Source: an uncultured Candidatus Saccharibacteria bacterium (lineage in GTDB: Bacteria; Patescibacteriota; Minisyncoccia; Phycocordibacterales; Zambryskibacteraceae). Taken from it: 64,000 bases of DNA. Below are positions 1 to 58,054 of the stretch, in pieces. The notes under the pieces are model-generated. The model ran no database searches and was not told the DNA's origin. It was given only the letters and a program-made list of their open reading frames with translations. The stretch lies in the NCBI GenBank assembly GCA_964383705.1, contig CAYLHJ010000003.1:361-64360 (forward strand). The letters run 5' to 3'. How positions within the stretch are numbered: the stretch's first letter is position 1; each line of letters begins with the position of its first letter. Both the position numbers and the translations under genes were made by a program.

Positions 1-232
1 ATTTGGATTCCATTCGGCTTTTATTTCACCATGATTTTTCTCATAGCTACTTACAACATGAGTAAGGTGTTGCATTAGGCGCTTTGCGTGCTCTGGAGTA
101 AAAACTAATACTTGAGTATCGGCCCCAGAAGCAAGTGCTAAAAGAAAATGATCTTCACGGAAACCAGCCTTAGCATTATCACAAAATTTCTTGGAAGAGT
201 TCCTAAATAAATCTTCATTTAATAGATCCATA
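1..232 (-). CDS. Hypothetical protein, 5' part only (ATG at 232-230, runs off the window start); lies immediately downstream of lexA on the same strand
   Basis: My own minus-strand translation from the ATG at 232: MDLLNEDLFRNSSKKFCDNAKAGFREDHFLLALASGADTQVLVFTPEHAKRLMQHLTHVVSSYEKNHGEIKAEWNPN... The frame stays open to position 1. No family recognised. Confidence 0.3.
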
Positions 233-240
233 TATTTATA

Positions 241-816
241 TTAGTATTTTCTTATAACCGCCTTTACAATTGCTGCAACACGAAAGCTTTCTTTTGGATA
301 AATCGGCTTAAAAAGCTTGTTTGCTGGCTCAAGATAGACTTTCCCTGATCTATCTTTCCTGAAGTATTTCATTGTCCAACCACCATCAACTTCAGCTATA
401 ACAATATCACCAAGTCTTGGATTATCTGAACGTTCTACTAGCACATAATCCCCTTCTTCAATATGAGCATCAATCATTGATTCGCCTTTCACTTCTAAAA
501 GATAACTTTTATCTTTATTATCTACAAGAAATTCTTCTATATTAAGCGAATCAAGCTCCTCAGCCTCTACAACACTGGGAATACCAGCCTCAACCAAACC
601 TAGAAGCGGTATTTCACCAATAATTTTATTAGGAGTAATGCGACCCAATGAATCTTTAGAGACAACACCCTCTTCTACAAGCCAATTAATAAGTTTGTGA
701 ACTGAATTTTTTGACTTGAAACCTAGAATGTCCATTATTTCTTTATACCCCGGCATTCGCTTATTATCACGATAGAAAGAAATTATTTTATTCTTTTGTT
801 CTTCTTTCTTTTTCAT
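241..816 (-). CDS. lexA: LexA repressor (S24 self-cleaving SOS regulator)
   Basis: 191 aa. An N-terminal winged HTH is followed by an S24 peptidase domain with the GESM catalytic Ser motif and a downstream Lys (VKAV). The domain order is typical of LexA. Confidence 0.9.
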   Translation of the reverse strand: MKKKEEQKNKIISFYRDNKRMPGYKEIMDILGFKSKNSVHKLINWLVEEGVVSKDSLGRITPNKIIGEIPLLGLVEAGIPSVVEAEELDSLNIEEFLVDNKDKSYLLEVKGESMIDAHIEEGDYVLVERSDNPRLGDIVIAEVDGGWTMKYFRKDRSGKVYLEPANKLFKPIYPKESFRVAAIVKAVIRKY

Positions 817-817
817 A

Positions 818-1015
818 TTAGAAAATCAATGAAGCAAAGCTCCATGAACTTCGTGCTCGCGCTTTTTCACTGATGTCGTTTAACATTGAAACAAGAAGTT
901 TGTGACGCTTCGCTTCTGCCCTATACGAAGCACCCTTTATGACTTTCAAATCTATCATCTCATTTATTTCAACTAATTCTCTATTGATTGTTCTTATTAA
1001 TTTTTCTTTGCTCAT
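818..1015 (-). CDS. Small hypothetical protein (65 aa) immediately upstream of lexA, probably co-transcribed with it
   Basis: The ORF stop abuts the lexA start with a 1-nt gap. A LexA-type box lies about 50 nt upstream of its start. No recognisable domain. Confidence 0.4.
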   Translation of the reverse strand: MSKEKLIRTINRELVEINEMIDLKVIKGASYRAEAKRHKLLVSMLNDISEKARARSSWSFASLIF

Positions 1016-1063
1016 TTTAGTTTGAAATTACCTGACCGATAATTACTTATAAATTAATTATAA

Positions 1064-1079
1064 GTGAACTTTGGTTCAC
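1064..1079. promoter_or_regulatory. Putative LexA operator (Cheo/SOS box, GAAC-N4-GTTC type): GTGAACTTTGGTTCAC
   Basis: A perfect inverted repeat, GTGAAC-TTTG-GTTCAC, sits in the AT-rich leader upstream of the small ORF-lexA operon. It matches the Gram-positive LexA consensus CGAAC-N4-GTTCG in its core GAAC-N4-GTTC. Confidence 0.6.
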
Positions 1080-1225
1080 CTGCAAGAAAATTCCGAAATA
1101 AACTGGGGATAACGCGATACCTATCCCTTGATGACATAATCTTTACAAAAAACCTGTAAAGGGTATCCTCATTAGTGGAAAGATTTGTTTCTTTTTATCC
1201 ATACTAGGCCATATCGGAGGGTTCT

Positions 1226-1513
1226 ATGTCGAGACGGGCCAGAGCAAGCACCCCTCGCTCGCATCCCAACCAGATGCGCGCAAGCGCGAAAAAGAAGCTT
1301 CGGAAGAAGGAGAAGGCCCTCGAGTTAGAGCTCGAGGCAGTGAAGCTCGGGCTATCAATTCCTGAGCTTCAACAGAAGAAGTTTGTTGAAGCAATGGAAG
1401 CCGCAAGAAAGCGGAAGCTGGAAGCGGACAAGAATGGCTGGGTGCCAAGAAATAACCGGGCATCGAGACCCCCCTACTACAACTACATGGATTATTCGGG
1501 GGTTGGTTACTAA
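1226..1513 (+). CDS. GC-rich mini-cistron A: 95-aa highly basic (K/R-rich) hypothetical protein
   Basis: SD GGAGGG lies 4 nt before the ATG. The coding region is visibly GC-rich relative to its flanks, which is also why several overlapping shadow ORFs appear on both strands here. It ends at an intrinsic terminator. The protein is MSRRARASTPRSHPNQMRASAKKKLRKKEK... with a Y/N/G-rich C-terminus. Confidence 0.45.
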   Translation: MSRRARASTPRSHPNQMRASAKKKLRKKEKALELELEAVKLGLSIPELQQKKFVEAMEAARKRKLEADKNGWVPRNNRASRPPYYNYMDYSGVGY

Positions 1514-1525
1514 GCCCCAATCCTC

Positions 1526-1557
1526 AAGGCGCGACAGCATGTCGCGCCTTTGTTTTG
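1526..1557 (+). terminator. Rho-independent terminator: GGCGCGAC-agcat-GTCGCGCC followed by TTTGTTTTG
   Basis: An 8-bp GC stem with a 5-nt loop is followed by a T-tract, directly after the stop of mini-cistron A. Confidence 0.7.
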
Positions 1558-1615
1558 CGCCACTTAGTTAAATGTATTAAAATGATAGCCTGTTTAGCCA
1601 TTTATACTTAATCTG

Positions 1616-2311
1616 TTGCCTATGTCATTTATAAGAAGAAATCTGTGGGGAGTTGGCTTTGTCGTTGTTTTAGGTGGAGCATTGATTGCAATGTGGTTAG
1701 CAAATAGGAGTAATGCTACCAATTATCCAACGGGAGATACATTAAAAGAGGTGGAATTTTCAATATCCGCAGATGACAATGTTAAGGGACCCCAAAATGC
1801 AAAAGTAACTCTTGTAGAATTTTCAGACTTCCAATGCCCAGCGTGTAAAGCTTATGCTCCAGTTATTGATGAATTGCTCAGCCAATACCCAAATGATTTA
1901 AGACTTGTTTACAAACACTTTCCACTTAAGACTATACATATGAGAGCAATGAATGCGGCCCAAGCTTCAGAGGCTGCAGGCAGACAAGGAAAATTCTTTG
2001 AAATGGCAAAGATTCTTTTTGATAATCAGGACAATTGGTCACGAGTTCCTGGTATTGGGGTATTTGAGTCATATGCTGAAAATCTCGGTTTAAATATTGA
2101 ACAATTTAAAAATGATTACGGCTCAGATGAAGTTAGAGACAAAATCAATGGACAGCTCGATTATGGAATAAGCTTGAACGTTAATTCCACACCGACAATC
2201 TATCTCAATGGGAAAAAGATAGAAAATCCAGCAAGCTTCGACGCCTTCAGAGGACTCATTGAAGCGGAAATAAATAAACCTTCAGAAACTACCGTATCGA
2301 TAACCCCATAA
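1616..2311 (+). CDS. DsbA-family thiol:disulfide oxidoreductase (membrane-anchored, thioredoxin fold, CPAC active site)
   Basis: N-terminal TM helix. The FSDFQCPACKAY motif is a CxxC in a DsbA/BdbD-like context. The gene is adjacent to a VKOR homologue. Confidence 0.8.
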   Translation: MPMSFIRRNLWGVGFVVVLGGALIAMWLANRSNATNYPTGDTLKEVEFSISADDNVKGPQNAKVTLVEFSDFQCPACKAYAPVIDELLSQYPNDLRLVYKHFPLKTIHMRAMNAAQASEAAGRQGKFFEMAKILFDNQDNWSRVPGIGVFESYAENLGLNIEQFKNDYGSDEVRDKINGQLDYGISLNVNSTPTIYLNGKKIENPASFDAFRGLIEAEINKPSETTVSITP

Positions 2312-2313
2312 AA

Positions 2314-2745
2314 ATGGATATTCAAATTCCTCGATCAATAAAAATTCTGTTCTTAATCGTCGCCCTTATTGGTTTTTTTGATGCGGTATTTCTAACCGCC
2401 AATCATTACTCTGGTATCACACCACCGTGTTTTGTGGTCCAAGGTTGTGAGCAAGTTACAACAAGTAAATATTCTGAAATTTTAGGAATCCCGGTCGCGC
2501 TTTATGGGGCAATATTTTATCTCGTAGTATTTTTCACGGCAGTTTATTTTATAGAAAAAAGAAAGCTTATTGCGCTACGTTTTCTTCACTTAATCACAAC
2601 CGTTGGCGCAATATTTTCACTTTGGTTTTTATATGTCCAAGGAATTATCATCGGTGCCTGGTGTATGTATTGTCTTATTTCAGCGGGAACATCTTTTACC
2701 CTATTTATTCTTGGTTCATTGGCTATTCACAAAAAGTGGTCTTAG
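2314..2745 (+). CDS. Vitamin K epoxide reductase (VKOR) family membrane protein, the DsbB-analogue partner of DsbA
   Basis: A multi-TM protein with a loop Cys pair (PPCFVVQGC) and a CxxC in a TM helix (AWCMYC), as in bacterial VKOR. It overlaps/abuts the DsbA-like gene. Confidence 0.75.
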   Translation: MDIQIPRSIKILFLIVALIGFFDAVFLTANHYSGITPPCFVVQGCEQVTTSKYSEILGIPVALYGAIFYLVVFFTAVYFIEKRKLIALRFLHLITTVGAIFSLWFLYVQGIIIGAWCMYCLISAGTSFTLFILGSLAIHKKWS

Positions 2746-2774
2746 TGCTTATAGCAAAAAAAAATTAGCAATCA

Positions 2775-2805
2775 AAAACCCCGCATTGCGCGGGGTTTTT
2801 GATTT
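2775..2805. terminator. Bidirectional intrinsic terminator: A-tract, CCCCGC-attgc-GCGGGG, T-tract
   Basis: The hairpin is flanked by AAAAA upstream and TTTTTGATTT downstream. It lies between the convergent VKOR (+) gene and the 2810..3343 (-) gene. Confidence 0.7.
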
Positions 2806-2809
2806 AAGT

Positions 2810-3343
2810 TTATCTCTTTGTTATTTTCGCGTAACTTGCCCAACAATGAGACGAGTAGAGCCAGGGTCGTGCACCTTCCTTCTCATAGAGATATCGCGCA
2901 TACGCCATATTCCCTTCCAAAGTATAGATGTCATACCCAAGTTTCTTTGATTCCTTTAAGTGATACTTTTCATTAATCTGCATCACACCAACATCGCTTC
3001 TGTTGACCTCACCGCGAATCACTTTACCGTTTTTATCAAATTGATTAAAACGAGATTCACAACGAGCAACATCAATCAAGATTGGTAAATCAGAGAAATA
3101 TTCTGTAACCGCCTCTTTTGTTGTCAAAGTTCTAGGGTGACTTAATTCAACATCTTCTGGGGTGTTTACAACCGTTTCCGCAGTGACCTGCGTTTCTGGA
3201 AGTGAAACATCCCCTACAGTGTTGAAACCGGAAATAACAGCGAGTAAACCGATAGTCGTGAGATTTAAGATACACGTTTTTGTTATCAATAATTCTGTCG
3301 TTACCGTAAAAAAACAAAATTCCAGCTCTTCACTGGAATACAA
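2810..3343 (-). CDS. Membrane-anchored lysozyme-like / lytic transglycosylase (SLT) domain protein
   Basis: N-terminal TM helix. The C-terminal region carries CESRFNQ...GxxxxSDVGVMQIN, resembling the catalytic Glu-Ser and GLMQI motifs of SLT-domain transglycosylases. Confidence 0.5.
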   Translation of the reverse strand: MYSSEELEFCFFTVTTELLITKTCILNLTTIGLLAVISGFNTVGDVSLPETQVTAETVVNTPEDVELSHPRTLTTKEAVTEYFSDLPILIDVARCESRFNQFDKNGKVIRGEVNRSDVGVMQINEKYHLKESKKLGYDIYTLEGNMAYARYLYEKEGARPWLYSSHCWASYAKITKR

Positions 3344-3475
3344 ATATAATAGCAGGTCTAGAACTAAAAGTCAAGCTTTTTATTATGAAAATAAGTGAAA
3401 ATATGCTTATTTTAAGCCATAGTTTTAAGTAAAAGTATTATGCTATTTTTATGGGTTTTTGTCTAATTTAGACAA

Positions 3476-3661
3476 TTAAATAATCTCATTGGCATCTAGT
3501 ATTACTTGACATATACCAAAGGACATGATAGGGTATCTTCTAGATATAAATTCAAACAAATCACAGTAATCCTGTTCCTTCTCAATCAGTTTCATCAGGC
3601 CTACTTGGGTACAGCCTGAGACAATGAAACTGAAACGGCGCTGACGGGGATCTCCCACCAT
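3476..3661 (-). CDS. Small hypothetical protein (61 aa) downstream of trhO
   Basis: SD-like AAGAGGG lies 8 nt upstream of the ATG on the minus strand. There is no homology and the region is otherwise intergenic. Low confidence. Confidence 0.25.
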   Translation of the reverse strand: MVGDPRQRRFSFIVSGCTQVGLMKLIEKEQDYCDLFEFISRRYPIMSFGICQVILDANEII

Positions 3662-3737
3662 ATTAATTACCCTCTTTTGGGGAGAGAAAATTCTCTCGGG
3701 AATGTGGAAAGCCGAACCCGTGCGGTGTCACTCTTAC

Positions 3738-3770
3738 GGCGCGTTCGAATGTGGACGCGCCTTTTTTATT
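3738..3770 (+). terminator. Plus-strand-oriented intrinsic terminator hairpin: GGCGCG-N12-CGCGCC followed by TTTTTTATT
   Basis: A GC stem followed by a T-run on the plus strand. No plus-strand gene ends here; the T-run overlaps the trhO stop on the opposite strand. This may terminate an unannotated plus-strand transcript. Confidence 0.5.
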
Positions 3771-4653
3771 GAATATTCACCAAATTCCTACAATCTTCCC
3801 CGCAAAATCCGTCTTTTTCAGCCTTGCAAGCATCACAAATAAGAAAATGGCGGTTGCATTCCGGTCTTTTGCAATTTACATATTGCTCGGTCTGGCTCCC
3901 ACACATATCACATTCCCCTACTACTGTATGACTATCTTTGTCATAATCGGTAACAATTCTATTATCAAATACATATAATTTACCTTTAAATCCCTGATCA
4001 GGATACTTTTTCATATAAGTTACGATGCCACCATCAAGCTGGTAGACGTCTTCAAATCCCTTACTTAACAAATACCCAGAAGCTTTTTCACATCTGACAC
4101 CGCCAGTACAAACGGTAACAATTGTTTTATCTTTAAATTTTGTTTTTAAGTTCTCTGTTGCTATCGGCAAATCTCTAAAATTTTGCATTTGAGGATTAAT
4201 TGAATTTTCAAATCTGCCGACTTTGTATTCATAATCATTTCGCATATCAATCACATAGAACTCTTTCCCTTCTTTCCTCCACCCTTCAAGCTCGTCCGGA
4301 GAAATCCTTTTGCCTGTCAACTCATACGGCTTTACATCATCACTACCCAAATGTGAACTAACAATTTCATCCCGAAATTTAACTTTAAGCTTCGGGAAAG
4401 ATTTACCGTCGCTTAGATCTTTTTTGAAGATAATATCTTCAAAACCACTGTGGCTTTTTAAATCATTACAATATTTTTCTATATTCTCCTCAGTGCCCTC
4501 TAAGGTTCCATTTATCCCTTCAGATGCAACAATGACCCTACCCTTAAGAGAAAGTTTGGCGCAAATTCTTTTTTGCTCCTCAGTCAATAATTTAGGATTT
4601 TCAACCGGCGTATATTTATAATAGAGAATAATTTCGTATTTCATTTTAAACAA
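3766..4653 (-). CDS. trhO: Rhodanese-domain tRNA U34 hydroxylase TrhO (YceA/UPF0176 family) with a C-terminal Cys-rich zinc finger
   Basis: 295 aa. The rhodanese active-site loop is CTGGVRCEKA. The conserved YceA N-terminal region is present. A C-terminal CxxC...CxxC cluster is present. Confidence 0.8.
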   Translation of the reverse strand: MFKMKYEIILYYKYTPVENPKLLTEEQKRICAKLSLKGRVIVASEGINGTLEGTEENIEKYCNDLKSHSGFEDIIFKKDLSDGKSFPKLKVKFRDEIVSSHLGSDDVKPYELTGKRISPDELEGWRKEGKEFYVIDMRNDYEYKVGRFENSINPQMQNFRDLPIATENLKTKFKDKTIVTVCTGGVRCEKASGYLLSKGFEDVYQLDGGIVTYMKKYPDQGFKGKLYVFDNRIVTDYDKDSHTVVGECDMCGSQTEQYVNCKRPECNRHFLICDACKAEKDGFCGEDCRNLVNIQ

Positions 4654-5096
4654 AGTGGATCATCGCCGCACTCTTCTCTGACAGTGGAAAGAAGAACATC
4701 AAGCGTTTTTTCTAATTCTGATCTTTTTATTTTATCAATTTTTCCCAAAAGAGCTTCCGCTTTTTTTTCAACAAATATGAAAGTCTTTCCAAAAAGCTTT
4801 TGCCCCCGCTTTGTCAGATACAAATTATGTTCCTTCCGATTATTACTATTTGTAGTCAGGGCAACATAGTTCATCTTTTCAAGCACATCAATATGGCGCG
4901 ATACCGCAGCCTCTGTCGTTTCTTGAGTTCGCGCTACCTGTTTTTGAGATATACCCGGCTTGTGATTAATAATTGAAATAACGCGAAACTGAGAAAAACT
5001 AATCTCAAAATGAGAATGAAGTTCGCGATCCAGAAACTTATCAGCAAGAAACATAAACTTATGAATCTTGAGCATTGGGTTATCTTCAAAACTCAT
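4641..5096 (-). CDS. MarR-family transcriptional regulator
   Basis: 151 aa. The winged HTH (SQFRVISIIN...ISQKQVARTQETTEAAVSRHIDVLEK...YV) is typical of MarR. The gene lies upstream of an ABC efflux operon. Confidence 0.75.
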   Translation of the reverse strand: MSFEDNPMLKIHKFMFLADKFLDRELHSHFEISFSQFRVISIINHKPGISQKQVARTQETTEAAVSRHIDVLEKMNYVALTTNSNNRKEHNLYLTKRGQKLFGKTFIFVEKKAEALLGKIDKIKRSELEKTLDVLLSTVREECGDDPLCLK

Positions 5097-5116
5097 ATAA
5101 ATTTTTAAGCTAATTT

Positions 5117-6652
5117 CTACTTAAGCGTGACATTTATTGTGTCTCCTTGAGACAATCCGCTTGAAATTTCGACCATTCCATCGCTACCCACTAGGCCGGT
5201 TGTAACCGTCACTTCCTCAACCTCACCGTTATCTAGAACTTTCTGCACATAAGATTTTCCATCTCTTACTGTTATTGCGTACTGTGGAACAGAAAGAACA
5301 TTTTCCTTTGAAGCTGACTTTATCCTCAAGTTTGCCGTTAAACCACTCTTTAATCCTATAACGTCTCCGATAATTTTTATCTTAACTTTATAGTTCACTA
5401 CATCATCGACGATTGTTTCAGCTGGTTCAATGTAAAATATTTCCCCCTGATAAACAGTATCGGGGAACGCATCGAAAGTTATTGAAACAATGTTTCCAAT
5501 AGCAATCTTTCCGATATTAACTTCTGAAACATCTGCCTCAATTTCCATTTCCGCATCAGAAATAACAGAGACTAGATTCACTCCAGGAGATACAATCTCT
5601 CCAACTTCAGCATCTTGTTTGGTTACTATGCCATCTATTGGAGAACGAATGATTGTTTTTTCAAGTTGGGCGCGTACAGCATCCACTTGGGCTTGGTATT
5701 GGCCAACTCTCGCTTCTTGACTTAATACATCGTTAAACAGCAGGCTTGAGTTTTGTTGAGGCGCGGCGGTTAATTTTTCTTTTGCTGAAATTAAGTCTGA
5801 AATAGCGGTGGCAATAATTGTTCTGATATTAGAGACATCACTTTTATACTCTTCAACCGTATCTCTGTGATCTTCTATCTCAATCTCAATAGAGTTCACA
5901 GCCAAAGCAACCATGTCAATAAAATCCTTTATGCGATTTAAATTATTTTCTGCTTCAATTACATATGAATCAATATTCTGTCCAGAACTTAAAGTTTTGA
6001 GTTTAGTTAATGATTCTTTCCAAGACGTAAGAAGAAGTTCGAGTTTATATCTTTCATCATTTATCTTAACTCGAAGAGAGGTATCGACAGAAAAGATGTA
6101 TTTCCTATCGTCATCTAAAATTGAAAATTCAATACGAGTATTGCCAGCTCTCGGATTTTCAAAGAACTGATCAATTTTATTACGAAGCGCATCATCACTT
6201 TTTACATATGCATCTTCAATTTCAGCAATCATGTTTACTCTGGCGTCAGAATATTCATTTGTGCTTCCTGTTTTTATCGTAGAGAGCTTCACCATCTCCT
6301 CTCGCACGGTAGCTTCTGCTTTAGCAAGATCTGCTCGTAGCTCTGAATTATTTAAAGAGACTAAGAGTTCACCTTCTTTTACTCGAGATCCAACCGAAAC
6401 TGGAGTTGACGCTATTGTTCCCGTTTTCTCAAAACCCAAATTAACATCATGGACAGAGACCGTTTTGCCAGTAACAGCAACCTCGGCATTTACAGAACCC
6501 CGCACTACACTTATTTGCTCAATTTGACTCTTTCCGCCACGGATTATGAATATAATGGCAATAATAACGAGTAGAAGCGCCACGCTTGTTTTAGGGCGAG
6601 ATTTAACCATTCCAATTAGATTCTGTATTTTTTGTTTCATATTTTTTATCAT
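5117..6652 (-). CDS. Periplasmic adaptor / membrane-fusion (HlyD-family) protein of a tripartite ABC efflux system
   Basis: 511 aa. N-terminal TM anchor, a long coiled-coil insert, and beta-barrel/lipoyl-like motifs typical of MacA/HlyD adaptors. The gene is in an operon with ABC ATPase and FtsX-like permease genes. Confidence 0.7.
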   Translation of the reverse strand: MIKNMKQKIQNLIGMVKSRPKTSVALLLVIIAIIFIIRGGKSQIEQISVVRGSVNAEVAVTGKTVSVHDVNLGFEKTGTIASTPVSVGSRVKEGELLVSLNNSELRADLAKAEATVREEMVKLSTIKTGSTNEYSDARVNMIAEIEDAYVKSDDALRNKIDQFFENPRAGNTRIEFSILDDDRKYIFSVDTSLRVKINDERYKLELLLTSWKESLTKLKTLSSGQNIDSYVIEAENNLNRIKDFIDMVALAVNSIEIEIEDHRDTVEEYKSDVSNIRTIIATAISDLISAKEKLTAAPQQNSSLLFNDVLSQEARVGQYQAQVDAVRAQLEKTIIRSPIDGIVTKQDAEVGEIVSPGVNLVSVISDAEMEIEADVSEVNIGKIAIGNIVSITFDAFPDTVYQGEIFYIEPAETIVDDVVNYKVKIKIIGDVIGLKSGLTANLRIKSASKENVLSVPQYAITVRDGKSYVQKVLDNGEVEEVTVTTGLVGSDGMVEISSGLSQGDTINVTLK

Positions 6653-6663
6653 TTTATTATTTT

Positions 6664-7371
6664 TTATTTATTTTTTATATCAGAAATAATTTCACCATCA
6701 GATAGTGTTATCATTCGATCTGTTAATTTTGCATATTCTGGCTCATGAGTAACCATAATTATAGTCTGTCCTTCCTTATGAAGCTCAAAAAAATTCTTTA
6801 AAACCATGTCTGATGTTTCGCTATCAAGATTGGCGGTCGGCTCATCGGCAAATATAATTTTTGGTTCATGTGCAATTGCTCGAGCGATTGAAACCCTTTG
6901 CTGTTCACCCCCCGAAAGTTGAGAAGGTATATTTTCTAATCTGTGACCAAGACCAATTCGCTCAAGTGATTTTTTTGCCTTTCTGTCAGCATCGCCACGA
7001 GATAGCCCCTGCATGAGAAGTGGGACAACAACATTTTCCAAAGCATTTAAATCTGGAATGAGAGCATAATCTTGAAAAACATAACCGAGCTCTTCTAGAC
7101 GGATTTTTGTCTTTTCATCTCCAGAAAGATCAGTCACTTCTCTTCCATCGAGATAGACTTTCCCTGATGTTGGATGATCAAGCAAACCAATCTGATACAT
7201 TAGTGTTGATTTTCCTGATCCAGATTTTCCCGTAATAGCCACAAATTCTCCCGTCTTCACTTCAAAATTTACACCCCGAAGAGCGAAGATTTCTGAATCT
7301 CCGCTTTGGAATTTTTTGACAATGTTTTCTGCTTTTATCATTTTAAAATTATTTCCTACCAAGAATGGCAT
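6664..7371 (-). CDS. ABC transporter ATP-binding protein (MacB/LolD-like)
   Basis: Walker [13 protein letters not shown] signature [14 protein letters not shown], Walker B IIFADEPT and an H-loop are all present. Confidence 0.85.
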
Positions 7372-8629
7372 CCAACGTATTTTGTTTTACCACTATGCGA
7401 GCAGGAATATATCCCGCGATTAATGTGGCGACAATGAGGGTAACTGCCCGCGTAGCGGTATTTGGAATTTCTGCCACAAGAATACCATCACTAAATGGAA
7501 ACTTAATTGGATGCGCTTCAATAAAAGGCACGAGGAAACCATAGAGAATGAGGAGGCCAATACTAATACCAATAATTGCATAGAAAAATGATTGAAGAAC
7601 GTATGAAAATTCAATAGCTATTGAATCAATACCAATGCCCTTTAAAATGCCGATGAATTTCCTGCGAGTAATAGCATTAACAAAAATAACGATAAAAATC
7701 GTAATTGAAGCCGCAACTAAACCAATGGTCCCAACAACATTACCCAACAACCCAAAAGTATTTTTTATATCAAGAAGAAATTTTGGCAAGGATTCTTCCC
7801 ATGTTTGTACACGAGCATAATCACCAACCCCACCACGCAACAGAATATCTTTTACTAAATTTGGGTCGGCATCCTTTTTGAGAACAATTGATATCTCATC
7901 AACATTGTAATCTGACCTGCCAATCAAATTTCGCAAAGTTGTGTCAAGCATAAACATGCGAAAATCAACTTGATCCACTTTCCCCTGCATAATACCTTTA
8001 ATAAAAAATTCTTTTGTATTTTCTCCAACAGTGAGCAAAACTTTGTCTCCTATTTCTACATCTTCAAGTAAAGTAAGCCCAGGAACCTCTATATCAAGAT
8101 ACTTTCTTAAGAAGTTCGCTCCAATAAGAATACTGTCTGTATCAGCAGAAGTAAGATAGCTACCTTCAATAACTTTAGAACTTAGATGAGTTGCTTGATC
8201 TTCAAGCTCCGGATTAATACCAGCAATTTGCCCTGAAGCCGCATTCGGGGCGTCAGTAAGACGAATCTTTGTCTTATAATTCGCTTCAACTGTTCCCCCT
8301 TCTACATATCGATAAGTAACAACTTCGGCCCAAGGCAATTGCTGGGCCTGAGCAAGAATTGACGGACTATTTTCAATATATTCTTTCTTTGGGAGAGCAG
8401 TAATTAATATATCGCCGGCATAACCCGATCTGTATACATTAGTTGAACCTTCAATAAGGCCTACAAGAACCCCTCGAACAACAACCAAATTAAGAAAAGT
8501 TAGAACCATAACAAAAATAATAAGCGTTGTGGTGGCTCGAGAAGATCCCTTTACTTGACGGAGAGCAAGAAACCAACCGACTTTAAGAGATGTAACAATA
8601 TGAGAAAGGCGCTTTTTTTGTCGCTCCAT
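7349..8629 (-). CDS. ABC transporter permease (FtsX/MacB-like, 4 TM with a large extracytoplasmic domain)
   Basis: 426 aa. One TM helix, a roughly 250-aa loop, then three C-terminal TM helices: FtsX-like topology. The 3' end overlaps the ATPase gene. Confidence 0.75.
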   Translation of the reverse strand: MERQKKRLSHIVTSLKVGWFLALRQVKGSSRATTTLIIFVMVLTFLNLVVVRGVLVGLIEGSTNVYRSGYAGDILITALPKKEYIENSPSILAQAQQLPWAEVVTYRYVEGGTVEANYKTKIRLTDAPNAASGQIAGINPELEDQATHLSSKVIEGSYLTSADTDSILIGANFLRKYLDIEVPGLTLLEDVEIGDKVLLTVGENTKEFFIKGIMQGKVDQVDFRMFMLDTTLRNLIGRSDYNVDEISIVLKKDADPNLVKDILLRGGVGDYARVQTWEESLPKFLLDIKNTFGLLGNVVGTIGLVAASITIFIVIFVNAITRRKFIGILKGIGIDSIAIEFSYVLQSFFYAIIGISIGLLILYGFLVPFIEAHPIKFPFSDGILVAEIPNTATRAVTLIVATLIAGYIPARIVVKQNTLDAILGRK

Positions 8630-8668
8630 AATAAAGCAATATTCAGAATAACAAAAATACTTGATTAA

Positions 8669-9265
8669 TCAAGTATTTTGTGTCCACGGGATAGGAAAAG
8701 ATTCGAATTGCTTAAACAAAATTTTATCATACATCATCCGTGAAAAAGCTTCCGCCTCCCAAATAGCGCCGTTAATAGCTGTATGTGGCTTTGGTTCAGC
8801 ATTAATGCCGACATATTCCATAATTTTATCTGAATCAATTCTGGTTTTACGATTAAGAATTGGTGGCTCAATTCCTCTCCTGATCATGTGAAAATATGTA
8901 ACCGAGTGAAGATCAACAATTCTAAATGATAAAGGTGAGAATATCCCCACCCTCAACAGCGCAGAATTAATCATGGAAACATCAAAAGAAACATTTTGTC
9001 CGGCTATAACCATATCATCTCTGTTTTCTAACCAATCAATAAATAGCTTGGCTATCTCCCCTTCACCCTTTTTGCGAGGATCCTTAATCTGAGCTTCTGT
9101 AAATCCGTTTATCTGAAGTGCGGCGGGGTTAATTTCAGCCTGATCCCAGATCTTACACTCTTCAAAAAATTGCTTTTCTGGATGAGCAAAATCAATGGCC
9201 CCAATACTTACAATAGAATTTTTTTCTGGACTTATCCCGGTTGTTTCTACATCTAAAATAATCAT
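8669..9265 (-). CDS. DEDDh 3'-5' exonuclease (DnaQ/epsilon-like exonuclease domain protein)
   Basis: Exo I motif ILDVETTG near the N-terminus, downstream Exo II/III-like acidic motifs, and His before the C-terminal Asp. Confidence 0.75.
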   Translation of the reverse strand: MIILDVETTGISPEKNSIVSIGAIDFAHPEKQFFEECKIWDQAEINPAALQINGFTEAQIKDPRKKGEGEIAKLFIDWLENRDDMVIAGQNVSFDVSMINSALLRVGIFSPLSFRIVDLHSVTYFHMIRRGIEPPILNRKTRIDSDKIMEYVGINAEPKPHTAINGAIWEAEAFSRMMYDKILFKQFESFPIPWTQNT

Positions 9266-16383: not shown

Positions 16384-16785
16384 TTATTTTATTGAATCAA
16401 TAGTAACTTCAAAGTATGGCTGTCGATGACCATTCTTTTTGAAGTACCGGCTTTTCTGCTTGTACTTAATAACTGTAACTGTAGGATATCTGCCAATCTT
16501 AGTGAGACTGCCCTCAACTTTTGCTCCACCAATATATGGGTCACCAATGGTAGTATTTGAACCATCATCAACTAGAAGCACCTGATCAAAGACCATACGA
16601 TCTCCTTCCTTGAAAGACCCCTCTATTTTTTCGATCTTTATCTTTTCCCCTTGGGCAACCTTATATTGCTTGCCGCCGGTCGCAATAACAGCAAACAAGT
16701 CGCTCTTGCTTTGCTTTTCGGCTCTCGGCTTCTGGGTTTTTTTGGCTTCTGCTGTTTTAGGCATAACGGGTATCATTCTATACAA
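16384..16785 (-). CDS. rplU: 50S ribosomal protein L21 (start is probably an internal ATG; the tracked start is TTG)
   Basis: The core FAVIATGGKQYKVAQGEKIKIEKIEG...VLLVDDG...YKQKSRYFKKNGHRQPYFEVTI is typical of L21. The gene is not adjacent to rpmA. Confidence 0.85.
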   Translation of the reverse strand: MYRMIPVMPKTAEAKKTQKPRAEKQSKSDLFAVIATGGKQYKVAQGEKIKIEKIEGSFKEGDRMVFDQVLLVDDGSNTTIGDPYIGGAKVEGSLTKIGRYPTVTVIKYKQKSRYFKKNGHRQPYFEVTIDSIK

Positions 16786-16827
16786 AAAACATAAAAAGAC
16801 AAGCGCCTAACGTTTCCGTCAGGCGCT
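16783..16827 (-). terminator. Minus-strand intrinsic terminator: AGCGCCT-N12-AGGCGCT followed, on the minus strand, by TTGTCTTTTTATGTTTTTTG
   Basis: A 7-bp GC stem immediately after the stop of GC-rich mini-cistron B. The U-tract overlaps the rplU start region. Confidence 0.6.
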
Positions 16828-16836
16828 GGAACGAGA

Positions 16837-16968
16837 TCACCTCCCAGGGTTCCGTGTCTCGAGGGTCGACTGAGAGAAACTGGGTTCATTGTACCCACCA
16901 GCGCGAGTGCCTCCGCCATACCGGCCCCTGATCCTAGTCCGATCCCTGGAAAGTGCTGATCTTTTCAT
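16837..16968 (-). CDS. GC-rich mini-cistron B: 43-aa Arg/Gly-rich hypothetical peptide (MKRSALSRDRTRIRGRYGGGTRAGGYNEPSFSQSTLETRNPGR)
   Basis: Consensus SD AGGAGG lies 5 nt before the ATG on the minus strand. The patch is GC-rich and sits in an otherwise ORF-free intergenic region. It ends at a terminator hairpin. An alternative reading as a structured ncRNA is not excluded. Confidence 0.35.
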   Translation of the reverse strand: MKRSALSRDRTRIRGRYGGGTRAGGYNEPSFSQSTLETRNPGR

Positions 16969-17026
16969 CACATCCTCCTATTGTTGAGGGTGTAATTAAA
17001 GTATACAGCTCTATCTGGCAATTTAA

Positions 17027-18649: not shown

Positions 18650-18678
18650 TTGACTTTTTACCTTAATAGTGATATTAT
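18650..18678 (+). promoter_or_regulatory. Sigma70-like promoter TTGACT-N17-TATTAT upstream of mini-cistron C
   Basis: Near-consensus -35 and -10 hexamers with a 17-nt spacer lie about 50 nt upstream of the mini-cistron C ATG. Confidence 0.45.
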
Positions 18679-18728
18679 TAAGGTAGAAGATCATTTAATA
18701 CTTCGTCCCTTCTCACGCTGGAGGCTTG

Positions 18729-19016
18729 ATGTATAGCGACGAGTTCATCAATGAGCTCCGGATAAAGATTGGGAAGCTCCACAGAAAGACCGGAAACTAC
18801 CTCCAAGCCAGAACAGAGGTTCTGAGGGAGGCTCGTATCCCCTCAGATGACTGGCATGACGTCTCCTCCTGCATCGCCAAACTCTCAGCAAGAATCAGGA
18901 GAGATAACAAGGAGAAGCGCACGAAGGCGAACCCTGGCAAGAAGTCACTTTCACACCACAAGCCAGACCGCAATGAACGCAACCGCCCGCAGAACGGGTA
19001 CCAGCCGGACGATTAA
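18729..19016 (+). CDS. GC-rich mini-cistron C: 95-aa basic hypothetical protein
   Basis: SD GGAGG lies 4 nt before the ATG. The coding region is GC-rich and produces shadow ORFs on both strands. The stop lies in the loop of a terminator hairpin. Protein: MYSDEFINELRIKIGKLHRKTGNYLQARTEVLREARIPSDDWHD...RNERNRPQNGYQPDD. Confidence 0.45.
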   Translation: MYSDEFINELRIKIGKLHRKTGNYLQARTEVLREARIPSDDWHDVSSCIAKLSARIRRDNKEKRTKANPGKKSLSHHKPDRNERNRPQNGYQPDD

Positions 19017-19041
19017 TTGTCCGGCTGTTCTTTTTATATTT
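19002..19041. terminator. Intrinsic terminator CAGCCGGAC-gattaatt-GTCCGGCTG followed by TTCTTTTTATATTT; shared by the convergent mini-cistron C and the large ATPase gene
   Basis: A 9-bp stem followed by a T-run, with A/T-rich sequence on both sides. Confidence 0.65.
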
Positions 19042-27669: not shown

Positions 27670-28773
27670 CTAGAAGTTAGCAGTTGCTACATAGGTGAGG
27701 GTTGCGGTGTAAGCACCAGCCTCCGTCGAAGATGTGATATTCGCGAGATATCGTGCTGAGTATGTTGTGTTTGCAGAAGCGCTAGTTGCCGCTGCCACTT
27801 CATCAGGGAAAGCGGCAGTATCAAATGCAAAGCCCGCAGCCGCGTAGGGAGCAGAAACTGCGCCCGAACCACCAGAGGCTGTCATGCGTAAGCCAAATTG
27901 TTCGGTGCCCACCGAAGATGCAGTATTTGAGGAACCAATTGCAGATATAGTATTAGCACCAGAAGTAAGCGTTGCCCCATTCACCGTTACGGTGTAGCCG
28001 TTTGCTGCATTTGTGCCAACAACAAGTGTGTGTGCCTCCGCTTCGGTCGCAGAACCATTTGTATCACCAGAAGCAAAGAAATCGTCAGAGGCAGAGAGTG
28101 TACCAAACCCTATCGAGTTATCAGAGATAGTAAAGGTAAGTGATTCATCTACGGTTGCTGAAACAGACACCTGGTCATCGTTCAAAATGTTAATAACGAT
28201 ATCACCTGAATCTCCGAATGTTCCCGCAATTGCAATAGTATAGCTCGCTGCTGAGGCATGGTTAGTAATTTGTGTATCTCCAGTTGCTCCAGTTGTTGCG
28301 TTTGTACCAATCTGAACCTGAACACAGGCATCTGCGGCGATCGCGGCTGCACCAACACCGTCACTTGGAGCGGTAAGTGTAAGCACCTGGCCAGAAAGTG
28401 CTGCGCCCCAAGCGGTTGCTGAAGGTGAAGCGGCAAGTGTTTCTTCGTTAGAATAAGTTGGGGCGGTACAGTTTGACTGACTACCTGCGGAGTGAGCAAG
28501 ATCCACATCAGCAAAATCAAATGTGTTCGTAGTAAATCCTGATGGAAGCGTAATCGTGATGGTGTCCGACGACTGGTTAGCGCCCGTAGGAGATCGAAAA
28601 ACAATCGTATGATTTGAGGCCGTGCTTACTTTCTGACTCGACATTGTGTCTGATTTATTAAGAAGTGAAGCTGCGTATATGATATTAGGTGCTATACCCA
28701 AGAAGCAGGAGACTAGCGTAAACACAAGAAATAAGCTGGCGATAAAACGAAACCGTAAAAGGAGCTTGTGCAT
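27670..28773 (-). CDS. Secreted protein (367 aa) with a C-terminal WxL-like domain in which the two conserved Trp positions are Tyr; the 'small' member of the pair
   Basis: Signal peptide present. The C-terminal roughly 170 aa (LTFTISDNSIGFGTL...GYTVTVNG...EQFGLRMTASGG...YSARYLANITSSTEAGAYTATLTYVATANF) is shared at about 65% identity with the 906-aa neighbour. Confidence 0.5.
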   Translation of the reverse strand: MHKLLLRFRFIASLFLVFTLVSCFLGIAPNIIYAASLLNKSDTMSSQKVSTASNHTIVFRSPTGANQSSDTITITLPSGFTTNTFDFADVDLAHSAGSQSNCTAPTYSNEETLAASPSATAWGAALSGQVLTLTAPSDGVGAAAIAADACVQVQIGTNATTGATGDTQITNHASAASYTIAIAGTFGDSGDIVINILNDDQVSVSATVDESLTFTISDNSIGFGTLSASDDFFASGDTNGSATEAEAHTLVVGTNAANGYTVTVNGATLTSGANTISAIGSSNTASSVGTEQFGLRMTASGGSGAVSAPYAAAGFAFDTAAFPDEVAAATSASANTTYSARYLANITSSTEAGAYTATLTYVATANF

Positions 28774-34208: not shown

Positions 34209-34280
34209 GTGACCCTACGGGGAATCGAACCCCGCTTTGAGCCTTGAGAAGGCTCCGTCCTAGCCGATAGACGATAGGGC
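34209..34280 (-). tRNA. tRNA-Glu (anticodon CUC), 72 nt, CCA not encoded
   Basis: Manual fold: acceptor GGCCCTA/TAGGGTC (7 bp, one G-U), D-arm GTCT/GGAC, anticodon stem GAGCC/GGCTC with loop TTCTCAA, a 4-nt variable loop, T-arm CGGGG-TTCGATT-CCCCG, and discriminator A. The D-arm resembles E. coli tRNA-Glu. Confidence 0.85.
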
Positions 34281-34323
34281 CGTTGAAACAAAAGAATACC
34301 GAATTTAGTGGCTATAATCAAGG

Positions 34324-39148: not shown

Positions 39149-39189
39149 TATACAAAACAAAAGCGCCACTCGATTATCCGAAGTGGCGC
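39149..39189 (-). terminator. Minus-strand intrinsic terminator GCGCCACT-N11-AGTGGCGC followed by TTTTGTTTTG
   Basis: An 8-bp GC-rich stem directly after the mini-cistron D stop, with a U-run on the minus strand. Confidence 0.6.
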
Positions 39190-39381
39190 TCACCGTGAGA
39201 TCGTGCCCGTCGTGAGAGTCTTGATTTCTCTGAGGATTTCTTCGTGTTCAAGCTTCAAGAACTCACGAATTTCCTCCATCAACTTTGATTCTCCTGCCGA
39301 GAGCTTCTGGTTCTCAATTTGCTTGAGCACAAGCCCAGCATATTTGACCAGAAGCCTCGTCCTCAAATCTGGACGAGACAT
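39190..39381 (-). CDS. GC-elevated mini-cistron D: 63-aa hypothetical protein (MSRPDLRTRLLVKYAGLVLKQIENQKLSAGESKLMEEIREFLKLEHEEILREIKTLTTGTISR)
   Basis: SD AAGGAGA lies 5 nt before the ATG. A terminator follows directly. A TTGATA-N17-TAAATG promoter-like sequence lies upstream. The tracked ORF starts further upstream, but the SD supports the ATG at 39381. Confidence 0.4.
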   Translation of the reverse strand: MSRPDLRTRLLVKYAGLVLKQIENQKLSAGESKLMEEIREFLKLEHEEILREIKTLTTGTISR

Positions 39382-39444
39382 AGCTATCTCCTTTTGTTTG
39401 TTCCACCATAATAATAACACATTTATTTATAATATGCAAATATA

Positions 39445-47941: not shown

Positions 47942-48238
47942 CTAAGAGGCCTGAGGAGTTCTATGGACAGATTCTAATCTGTCCGCGATTTCTTTTATAA
48001 CTTCATCTGGATGCTCTTGCGCTCGAACAAAAAAATCTTCTTCATTGTTAACTCTTGTGTTAAATAACAAGCGAAATTCAGTAGAAAATTCATCAATCCA
48101 AGCTTCGGCTTTTTTAATATCATGAACACCTTCTGCTAAAAAATGTTTCATGACACCAGTTTGAATAATCATTTTGACTCTAAGAAATTCTTGGGGCGGT
48201 ATAGTTTCTTTTTTTGTTGGAACACCTTCTTGGTTCAT
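47942..48238 (-). CDS. Hypothetical protein (98 aa)
   Basis: ORF with consistent codon usage, situated between rseP and proS. No motif. Confidence 0.35.
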   Translation of the reverse strand: MNQEGVPTKKETIPPQEFLRVKMIIQTGVMKHFLAEGVHDIKKAEAWIDEFSTEFRLLFNTRVNNEEDFFVRAQEHPDEVIKEIADRLESVHRTPQAS

Positions 48239-57158: not shown

Positions 57159-57797
57159 ATGCATTCTTTCTTTAAATCACTCACGAACAAAGAAAAGGCC
57201 GTGTTTAAAAAACTTAACACGCCCAAAAAGATCCAGGATTTTTTAGAGATAATACCTATAAATTTCGAGGAAAATGGTGATACGATTTTTTCCCCCACAA
57301 CAGTAATAAAGCGACGCAAAGCACATTGCTTAGAAGGCGCCCTTCTTGCTGCCGCAATACTTTACTATCACAAAAACGCACCAATCATCATTGATCTACA
57401 ACCGGGTGATTTCAAAGATGATGGTCATGCGATTGCTGTCTTTAAGCAAAAAGGAAAGTGGGGCGCAATCAGCAAAACAAACCATGCAACTCTTAGATTT
57501 CGTGATCCTGTTTACAAAAATCACAGAGAATTAGTAATGTCTTACTTCCATGAATATTTCTTGGATGATGGGGTCAAAACATTACGTTCTTATACTGTTT
57601 TTGATTTAAGAAAAATTAAAAAAAATTGGATTGCTAACACTGACAACCTTTGGTGTATAGATGAAGCCCTAAACAAACAAAAATATATAAAAATTATATC
57701 AAAAAAAGAAGTGAAATCATTAAGAAAAGCAGACAAAATAGAAATAGAATCCGGGAAAATAATTCAATGGAAAAAGAAAAGCCACCCAGAAGTCTGA
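57159..57797 (+). CDS. Hypothetical protein, possibly transglutaminase-like cysteine peptidase fold
   Basis: KAHCLEGALLAAAILYYHKNAPIII resembles the transglutaminase-like Cys motif context. Downstream His (DDGHAIAVF) and Asp follow. Weak assignment. Confidence 0.3.
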   Translation: MHSFFKSLTNKEKAVFKKLNTPKKIQDFLEIIPINFEENGDTIFSPTTVIKRRKAHCLEGALLAAAILYYHKNAPIIIDLQPGDFKDDGHAIAVFKQKGKWGAISKTNHATLRFRDPVYKNHRELVMSYFHEYFLDDGVKTLRSYTVFDLRKIKKNWIANTDNLWCIDEALNKQKYIKIISKKEVKSLRKADKIEIESGKIIQWKKKSHPEV

Positions 57798-57816
57798 TGA
57801 CTTTCCTTGGGTGGCC
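57767..57816 (-). terminator. Minus-strand intrinsic terminator GCCACCCA-N19-TGGGTGGC followed by TTTTCTTTTTCC
   Basis: An 8-bp GC stem followed by a U-run on the minus strand, just after the mini-cistron E stop. It overlaps the 3' end of the plus-strand gene. Confidence 0.5.
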
Positions 57817-57834
57817 AATGTCGCCGACAGGGAT

Positions 57835-57981
57835 CAATTCTTCTCGGTCCTGACCACGCGACTGGCGACCGTCTTTGGGGCGCTGACCGGGTGAAGCCTC
57901 CCATTGGGATCCTTCTCCCGAATCTCGAGACTCCCGCCCTGTTTGTACCAGTGATCAAGCTCTTCCCGACTCGGGGGCATA
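57835..57981 (-). CDS. GC-rich mini-cistron E: 48-aa hypothetical peptide (MPPSREELDHWYKQGGSLEIREKDPNGRLHPVSAPKTVASRVVRTEKN)
   Basis: SD AAAGAGG lies 5 nt before the ATG. An upstream TTGACT-N17-TAGTAT promoter is present. The GC-rich patch stops before the terminator hairpin. The competing tracked ORF (57764..57958) reads through the hairpin and U-tract and is rejected. Confidence 0.35.
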
Positions 57982-58025
57982 CTTGCCTCTTTGGTGGTAG
58001 GTGAAAAAATAGCTCTCTCCTTTCA

Positions 58026-58054
58026 TACTATCACCTTTGCCATCAAAAGTCAAG
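58026..58054 (-). promoter_or_regulatory. Sigma70-like promoter TTGACT-N17-TAGTAT (minus strand) upstream of mini-cistron E
   Basis: -35 and -10 hexamers with a 17-nt spacer. The -10 lies about 45 nt upstream of the ATG. Confidence 0.45.

Follow-up and report, generated by a model that had tools for sequence, protein, structure and literature searches.

A short GC-rich unit in an AT-rich Patescibacteria genome is a gene for a basic protein of an apparently unnamed family

The tiny genomes of Patescibacteria contain a large share of genes without known function, and their small proteins are the least annotated of all. Here we characterize a group of short, GC-rich units in a stretch of 64,000 nucleotides (nt) from contig CAYLHJ010000003.1, which we call the window. 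An earlier note on this DNA had pointed to five such patches, each with one small open reading frame (ORF), here termed members A to E. The first of them, member A (1226..1513, plus strand), is a real protein-coding gene and not a structured RNA, and by its sequence the product belongs to a new, apparently unnamed small-protein family, so far seen on Patescibacteria-like contigs only. Member C is a second, unrelated protein-coding gene that evolves much faster than its neighbours. The reading that we favour as a whole, and consider rather probable, is that A is a monocistronic gene for a basic hairpin protein of an unnamed family, that its bias toward G and C at third codon positions (GC3) is maintained, and that C is a second gene of this kind. 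Held jointly with it, at the same strength, is the view that the GC richness is mainly this third-position bias and reflects neither an RNA-structure signal nor recently arrived foreign DNA. New here are a conserved family of small proteins (A) and a conserved orphan (C).

The unit of member A consists of the following elements:

1104..1172, from the S24/LexA-like operon (minus strand) to member A (plus strand): conserved divergent promoter block, from a three-genome alignment
1216..1220, plus strand: Shine-Dalgarno (SD) sequence GGAGG, 5 nt from the ATG, kept in L001 and L002
1226..1513, plus strand: member A coding sequence (CDS), 95 amino acids (aa), pI 10.4, GC 53.5%, GC3 0.635, supported by orthologs, the ratio of nonsynonymous to synonymous substitution (dN/dS) and a family profile
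1526-1550 by the terminator scanner, 1526..1558 with its T tract, plus strand: intrinsic terminator with an 11-bp GC-rich stem

The DNA alignment of member A comprises three genomes: the window, L001 and L002 (L numbers are our labels for the loci compared). L001 is a 13.7-kb contig syntenic with window positions 1-9000, sharing the S24/LexA-like operon, A, and the DsbA-like and VKOR genes. The frame of A is open in all three, with a single in-frame 3-nt indel, and its terminator is kept in both L001 and L002. Over codons 1-77 the differences at codon positions 1, 2 and 3 number 10, 7 and 25 (chi-square p = 0.0013), and a second pair gave 8, 6 and 25 (p = 0.0002); dN/dS is 0.12-0.20 at dS 0.4-1.0. 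At the protein level, the exact product is present in a 15-billion-protein collection, and two close homologs (P0004 and P0005) are 83% and 69% identical to it. When a profile of A was run with hmmsearch against 1.84 billion representative proteins, it gave 8 matches at E <= 1e-3, all of 82-109 aa and all sharing one motif; an iterated search yielded 15 proteins, and every member found is 82-110 aa long. The family motif reads RSHPNQxRASxKK...E(A)..LG(I/L)(S/T)(V/I)xEL and is followed by an aromatic-rich C-terminus. The genes of the family lie in unrelated neighbourhoods, and most members examined have an SD and a terminator hairpin soon after the stop codon. Member A thus combines an open frame, third-position bias, dN/dS well below 1 and protein homologs, as a protein-coding gene should.

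Given the family alignment, AlphaFold predicts member A to be a helical hairpin with helices at residues 14-41 and 45-69 (pLDDT about 95; mean over the protein 78.5) and disordered ends. The N-terminal arm is basic and carries an SHPNQxRAS motif; the tail is rich in Tyr and Gly. Across the 16 A-family members Pfam gave no family match, NCBIfam, PHROGs and PADLOC returned nothing significant for the family, and tblastn of member A against phage and plasmid records found no match. Sequence-profile searches of the PDB hit designed repeat proteins only, a trivial match brought about by the LGISVxEL motif. The earlier note's impression that no described family fits therefore stands for Pfam, NCBIfam, PHROGs, PADLOC, PDB and Rfam, all of which were without a match. 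It had also set the five peptides apart from small ribosomal proteins, and in agreement with this none has a ribosomal Pfam or NCBIfam family at E <= 1, nor does any of the 16 A-family members at E <= 0.01. Member A does resemble small helical-hairpin ribosomal or ribosome-associated proteins (uL29, bS21, RMF) in size, positive charge and predicted hairpin; unlike them, it matches no ribosomal model at E <= 1 and lies outside a ribosomal operon, and compared with core ribosomal proteins the family is far too rare. All five products are basic, as had been claimed (pI 9.2-11.7), and all are hydrophilic, with a grand average of hydropathy (GRAVY) of -0.43 to -1.45. With this hydrophilicity and no PADLOC hits, the toxin or antimicrobial role that had been considered for them has no support; GRAVY is negative in all five and the sequences lack a hydrophobic stretch, so that they do not resemble type I toxins. 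The most reasonable guess, from charge, predicted disorder and tail composition, is that member A may bind nucleic acid, whether RNA, DNA or the ribosome.

The following picture would fit these features. Member A would be transcribed alone, from a sigma-70-type promoter lying back to back with that of the divergent S24/LexA-like operon and overlapping it, and a strong SD and an intrinsic terminator of its own would complete the unit. The product would be a highly basic cytoplasmic protein of 95 aa, built as a two-helix hairpin flanked by a disordered Arg/Lys-rich N-terminal arm (SHPNQxRASxKK) and a disordered aromatic, Gly/Arg-rich tail, and it would use the basic arm and the tail to bind RNA, DNA or the ribosome. 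A GC-rich, more stable short messenger RNA (mRNA) is one possible cause of the GC3 bias. Members B, D and E would share this architecture with A and C.

Member C provides the second case. Its elements are:

18650..19027, plus strand: member C unit, with a CDS of 95 aa at 18729-19016 and a syntenic ortholog
18650-18678, plus strand: promoter TTGACT-17-TATTAT, from the promoter scan
18720-18724, plus strand: SD GGAGG, 4 nt from the ATG
19002-19027, plus strand: terminator found by the scanner, overlapping the stop codon

In L090 an ORF of 91 aa (1724..1999) occupies the same slot, between a TraG-like gene and the next gene, and it has the same promoter type, an SD and a terminator overlapping the stop. 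The two proteins are 43% identical (alignment z = 13.9), while RmuC is 79% identical between the same loci. Relatives of the window's RmuC, with identities of up to 75-79%, belong to metagenome-assembled genomes of Parcubacteria, Paceibacteria, Zambryskibacteria and Nomurabacteria, which marks the window as part of a Patescibacteria (candidate phyla radiation) genome of the Paceibacteria/Parcubacteria type. Nucleotide identity between C and its ortholog is 0.53, 0.57 and 0.43 at codon positions 1, 2 and 3, and the other frames contain stops. A syntenic ortholog in which positions 1 and 2 are conserved above position 3 marks C as protein-coding; frame-specific conservation at only 43% identity shows that it is fast-evolving yet coding. 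No relative of C was found among viral contigs.

The remaining three members, all on the minus strand, were located as follows:

16802..16979, minus strand: member B unit, with a 43-codon candidate ORF at 16837-16968, in the rmuC-rplU spacer
16974-16979, minus strand: SD of B, AGGAGG, 5 nt from the ATG
16827-16802, minus strand: terminator of B, found by the scanner
39161..39440, minus strand: member D unit, with a 63-aa ORF at 39190-39381, upstream of mraZ, probably coding as judged from its sequence
39411-39440, minus strand: promoter of D, TTTGCA-18-TATTAT with a TG
39387-39393, minus strand: SD of D, AAGGAGA, 5 nt from the ATG
about 39161-39189, minus strand: terminator of D, read by eye
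57775..58053, minus strand: member E unit, with a 48-aa candidate ORF at 57834-57980
58025-58053, minus strand: promoter of E, TTGACT-17-TAGTAT with a TG upstream
57986-57992, minus strand: SD of E, AAAGAGG, 5 nt from the ATG
about 57775-57815, minus strand: terminator of E, read by eye

To quantify the GC richness of the five patches, each was compared with its 500-bp flanks and with 150-nt sliding windows over the whole 64,000 nt. The window has a mean GC of 39.4% and the flanks lie at 33-41%, while the patches reach 53.5% (A), 57.6% (B), 53.1% (C), 47.4% (D) and 59.9% (E). The 150-nt windows have a mean GC of 0.394 (sd 0.060), and the maxima within A, B, C and E, at 0.59-0.61, lie about 3.3 to 3.7 sd above it; the enrichment of D is modest only. 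The five sites claimed in the earlier note are therefore all above the window (47-60% against 39.4%), an excess that persists when measured, and the stacks of shadow ORFs on both strands are present at the patches. So is an SD 4-5 nt before one ORF in each patch, always followed by ATG. A terminator per patch had likewise been claimed; the scanner finds those of A, B and C, and those of D and E, whose loops exceed its loop limit, were read by eye. The promoters proposed for C and E (TTGACT-17-TATTAT and TTGACT-17-TAGTAT) were borne out. Good promoter sequences precede C, D and E, and A has only a weak TTTACA-16-TATCCT. Two points needed correction: the ORF of E had been placed at 57835..57981, one base off from 57834..57980, and the five had been treated as one set. 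Pairwise comparison found no mutual similarity among the peptides, as the note itself had said, and since their sequences are unrelated the single-set reading is wrong. What holds is that they are small, independently signalled units, each with an SD and a terminator of its own and most with their own promoter, and that their GC and GC3 fall outside the range of the genome. The term mini-cistron fits A and C, and for D and E it is plausible.

The list of GC-rich sites was also incomplete. A sixth intergenic unit, at about 3575-3770, had been overlooked, and some large genes are internally GC-rich. Two of these (27670-28773 and 28879-31599, minus strand) are without a Pfam match and have an overall GC of 48-49%, with 0.56 at second positions; they explain most of the remaining GC-rich stretches of the window and are probably low-complexity or surface proteins.

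Most of the excess lies at third codon positions. In 62 ordinary genes of the window GC3 is 0.33 ± 0.058, against 0.635 in A, 0.568 in B, 0.688 in C, 0.578 in D and 0.714 in E, with both G and C raised. The bias recurs across genomes. A-family genes have a GC3 of 0.72-0.78 in hosts of 42-46% GC (L083, L086 and L172) and exceed their neighbours in about 7 of 9 lineages, GC-richer hosts included; the C ortholog in L090 has a GC3 of 0.63 with neighbours at 0.34-0.40. That the excess recurs in orthologs from other AT-rich genomes argues against recent horizontal transfer, and since it is kept across such hosts, some force on nucleotide composition seems to maintain it. Expression-linked codon bias was considered and rejected: the larger genes with high GC3 are hypothetical proteins and not translation factors, L21 shows no GC3 excess over 18 loci (mean difference -0.026), and the cold-shock gene of L086 has an ordinary GC3. 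The window also holds an AT-rich 98-aa gene of ordinary composition (47942..48238). A crude scan of small SD-led intergenic ORFs in 169 loci of at least 4 kb plus the window gave a modest mean GC3 excess of +0.08, so the effect is not general to all small genes. Nine ORFs combined a terminator with an excess above 0.2; they include A, B, C and the L090 ortholog of C, with C ranking highest and A third.

In several respects A resembles the uncharacterised small basic proteins from stand-alone ORFs, which gene callers often miss: it is no longer than 95 aa, monocistronic, equipped with a strong SD and its own terminator, and of narrow taxonomic range. It differs in that A and C are far GC-richer than the genome, mostly at third positions, and remain so in orthologs. 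We know of no description of persistent GC3 excess as a property of small-protein genes, and a literature search on GC-rich small genes in Patescibacteria returned nothing relevant. The 15-billion-protein collection contains neighbouring proteins of this genome but not the exact products of B, C, D and E, which implies that standard gene callers probably skip such compositionally atypical small ORFs. Should the GC3 excess be borne out by a broader survey, it would suggest that transcript composition is under selection; it would also serve as a cheap search signal.

Several observations weigh against the reading favoured here. The A family is tiny, with about 16 of 5.8 billion clusters, and the statistical power of three orthologs is limited. 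Two family members (L088 and L173) lack the GC3 elevation, and within the window, L001 and L002 alone a slow decay of old foreign composition is a possible explanation. The promoter of A is a weak match, with TATCCT as its -10 box. Foldseek of the A model against the PDB gave no match, so the hairpin fold is uninformative. For B, the frame has a GC2 of 0.68, above its GC3 of 0.57 and atypical of coding sequence, and the spacers of L090 and L003 hold different ORFs in place of a conserved one.

Because the sixth unit bears on how the GC richness is to be explained, we describe it here:

about 3575..3770, plus strand: sixth GC-rich unit, lacking a credible ORF, with a promoter TTGACA-17-TAGGGT upstream and a terminator at 3738-3761

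Its folding z-scores are -4.2 and -3.8, and about 150 nt of it are near-identical in L001 (4290-4540), where the flanks are about 65% identical. It has no Rfam match, either in the whole-window run or in a local scan of 3500-3790, and no other part of the window is as good a candidate for a true small RNA outside Rfam. Beside it, between the same two genes, L001 has an extra insert of about 420 nt (3800-4230) with a bidirectional terminator and a hydrophobic 66-aa ORF (3891..4091, minus strand), so that the candidate RNA is adjoined by a small variable element.

The earlier note had allowed that the patches might be structured-RNA loci with fortuitous ORFs. For member A this would mean that the ORF is a by-product of the scarcity of stops in GC-rich sequence, and there are indeed long ORFs in several frames, such as a 98-codon antisense ORF at 1224..1520, and the whole unit, terminator included, folds at z = -3.0. 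Most of that z-score is supplied by the terminator, however. The coding body gives -1.2 to -2.0, random gene segments give -0.2 ± 0.96, and the bodies of A, B, C and E are all within the control range. RNAalifold on the three orthologs returned a covariation term of +0.82, which lends no support to a conserved structure, at the low power of three sequences. Rfam 15 at the gathering threshold found only a tRNA-Glu (34210-34281) in the whole window; at E <= 1, and in local scans of A (1100-1620), B, E and 3500-3790, matches were at chance level and far below threshold, C and D being covered by the whole-window runs. With third-position substitution bias, dN/dS of 0.12-0.20 and remote protein homologs of the same length on the other side, a non-coding RNA is scarcely credible for A and close to refuted; the suggestion is not supported for C either, given its protein-level conservation and ordinary folding z-score. 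A subtler version holds that the units are dual-function transcripts, regulatory or structural RNAs that also bear a translated small ORF. RNA-level selection would explain why GC is kept where the protein evolves fast, as in C (43% identical to its ortholog where the neighbouring RmuC is 79% identical, yet with a GC3 of 0.63-0.69), or is unconserved, as in B. Moreover, the same genome has a similarly built GC-rich unit without an ORF that is strongly structured and conserved (about 3575-3770), member D folds at z = -2.7 to -3.3, and the predicted fold of B is closed by a long-range helix. SgrS/SgrT, RNAIII/Hld and SR1/SR1P are likewise short transcripts with their own promoter and terminator and a small ORF, and the composition of our units suggests a nucleotide-level constraint as in the SgrS/SgrT type. 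Unlike in those systems, our analysis turned up neither a conserved RNA structure nor covariation nor a target; A lacks covariation support, the bodies of A, B, C and E fold no better than controls, no Rfam family matches, and neither a target nor an antisense partner was identified. The A protein is also longer than typical peptides encoded by small RNAs and under clear purifying selection. We regard dual function as distinctly unlikely. Simply unlikely, in our estimate, is a broader proposal that Patescibacteria carry short self-contained units, both coding (A and C) and non-coding (about 3575-3770), in which GC itself is selected independently of the protein. If it were true, high GC may protect short transcripts from AU-directed RNases or prolong their life in slow-growing or dormant cells, and the GC3 anomaly would mark an unrecognised layer of post-transcriptional control and provide a practical finder of small genes missed by callers.

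Two further alternatives concern where the genes came from and what A does. The patches had been called foreign and horizontally acquired; their atypical composition agrees with this, but a recent transfer is weakened by the synteny of A and C and by the GC3 excess in orthologs at saturated divergence, and no phage, plasmid or viral-contig relatives were found. In its full form this explanation makes the mini-genes recent, not yet ameliorated acquisitions that came from a GC-richer host, phage or plasmid and may encode toxins or antimicrobial peptides. It could draw on GC and GC3 values far beyond the genome's range, on the absence of homologs of B, C, D and E from protein clusters, on the different small genes that the rmuC-rplU spacer carries in each genome, on the extra insert of L001 at the small-RNA locus and on an integrase gene about 500 nt from the A-family gene of L086. 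What makes it very unlikely is that the syntenic position of A and of C is kept between genomes at dS of about 0.7-1.0, that the excess is seen in deep orthologs of several AT-rich hosts and surpasses even GC-richer hosts, and that relatives are missing from phage, plasmid and viral collections; the peptides are hydrophilic, unlike pore-forming toxins, and have no PADLOC match. The units share with compositionally atypical acquired islets a GC content and codon usage that differ from the host, yet at only 150-300 bp they are without mobility genes, syntenic, and constant in composition in deep orthologs. The other alternative takes A for an SOS effector, for example a cell-division inhibitor, that is repressed by the divergent S24/LexA-like protein through a palindrome in the shared promoter block. 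The genes of small SOS inhibitors of cell division (yneA, divS, chiZ) are divergent neighbours of lexA in several Gram-positive bacteria. The gene facing A (241..816, minus strand) matches Peptidase_S24 (E = 4e-24) and, weakly, the LexA DNA-binding domain, and the block with its TTTACA-N7-TGTAAA is near-invariant in three genomes, so that A, like yneA, divS, chiZ and sidA, is a small gene sharing a conserved promoter block with a divergent LexA-like S24 gene. It differs from them in lacking a transmembrane or LysM segment. Elsewhere the A family is not linked to an S24 gene and the palindrome is absent from its contexts; nor was a LexA-box regulon detected, the palindrome being no more frequent in the window than expected. 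An SOS role for A is in our view highly improbable.

Within the block (1104..1172), about 60 nt are near-invariant in the three genomes and the adjoining 5' untranslated region varies. It contains TTTACA (1142-1147)-N7-TGTAAA (1155-1160), followed on the plus strand by the -10 box TATCCT (1164-1169). As an operator of a regulon the palindrome was rejected (7 matches in the window against 7.2 expected), and the simpler explanation, read from the sequence, is that it would represent two back-to-back -35 boxes, one for A and one for the divergent operon. That operon comprises a 65-aa ORF, the Peptidase_S24 protein and DUF3467. A DUF3467 gene also lies directly downstream of the A-family gene in L089 (1374-1640); together with its presence in the S24 operon beside A in L001 (293-592) and in the window lineage, this makes a weak co-occurrence. 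Between the window (241-816, minus strand) and L001 (603-1178) the S24/LexA-like gene has a dS of only 0.08, while the adjacent A and DsbA-like genes are at 0.7-1.0, which suggests that lineages have recently recombined here or that the gene is unusually constrained.

Members B, D and E may each be either an orphan protein gene or an RNA. A concatenated B+C+D+E protein query gave no match at E <= 1 among 5.8 billion clusters. In the SD-set frame the order GC3 > GC1 > GC2 is seen in A, C, D and E (GC1/GC2/GC3 of 0.50/0.34/0.58 in D and 0.61/0.47/0.71 in E); with a chance of about 1/6 per ORF, this order is the sole internal coding support for D and E. Member E folds at z of about 0 and D at -2.7 to -3.3. 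For B, an apparent QSTLE match to the L090 spacer was not significant. Since a terminator and a separate promoter stand between B and rplU, B is not a leader of that gene, and Rfam L21_leader did not match. As a conserved RNA downstream of rmuC it was likewise rejected: many genomes have a GC-rich patch there, with unrelated sequences.

The rmuC-rplU spacer in which B lies (window 16786-17026) varies among Paceibacteria from 61 to 895 nt, and its content is unrelated from genome to genome (L003, L004, L008, L026, L042, L047, L056, L079, L090-L095 and others). Its small genes encode Gly-rich, disordered hydrophilic or membrane proteins and are often GC-rich, and some spacers hold a promoter only; the spacer looks like a hot spot of small-gene turnover. 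The adjoining rplU (L21) has no SD, and an element TGTATAG(A/T)AT-N5-6-CCCGTTATG is conserved directly at its start (window 16775-16802 and 16785, minus strand; L090 4370-4396; L003 about 1790-1820), which suggests a nearly leaderless L21 mRNA. The corresponding -35 box shares nucleotides with the T tract of the terminator upstream.

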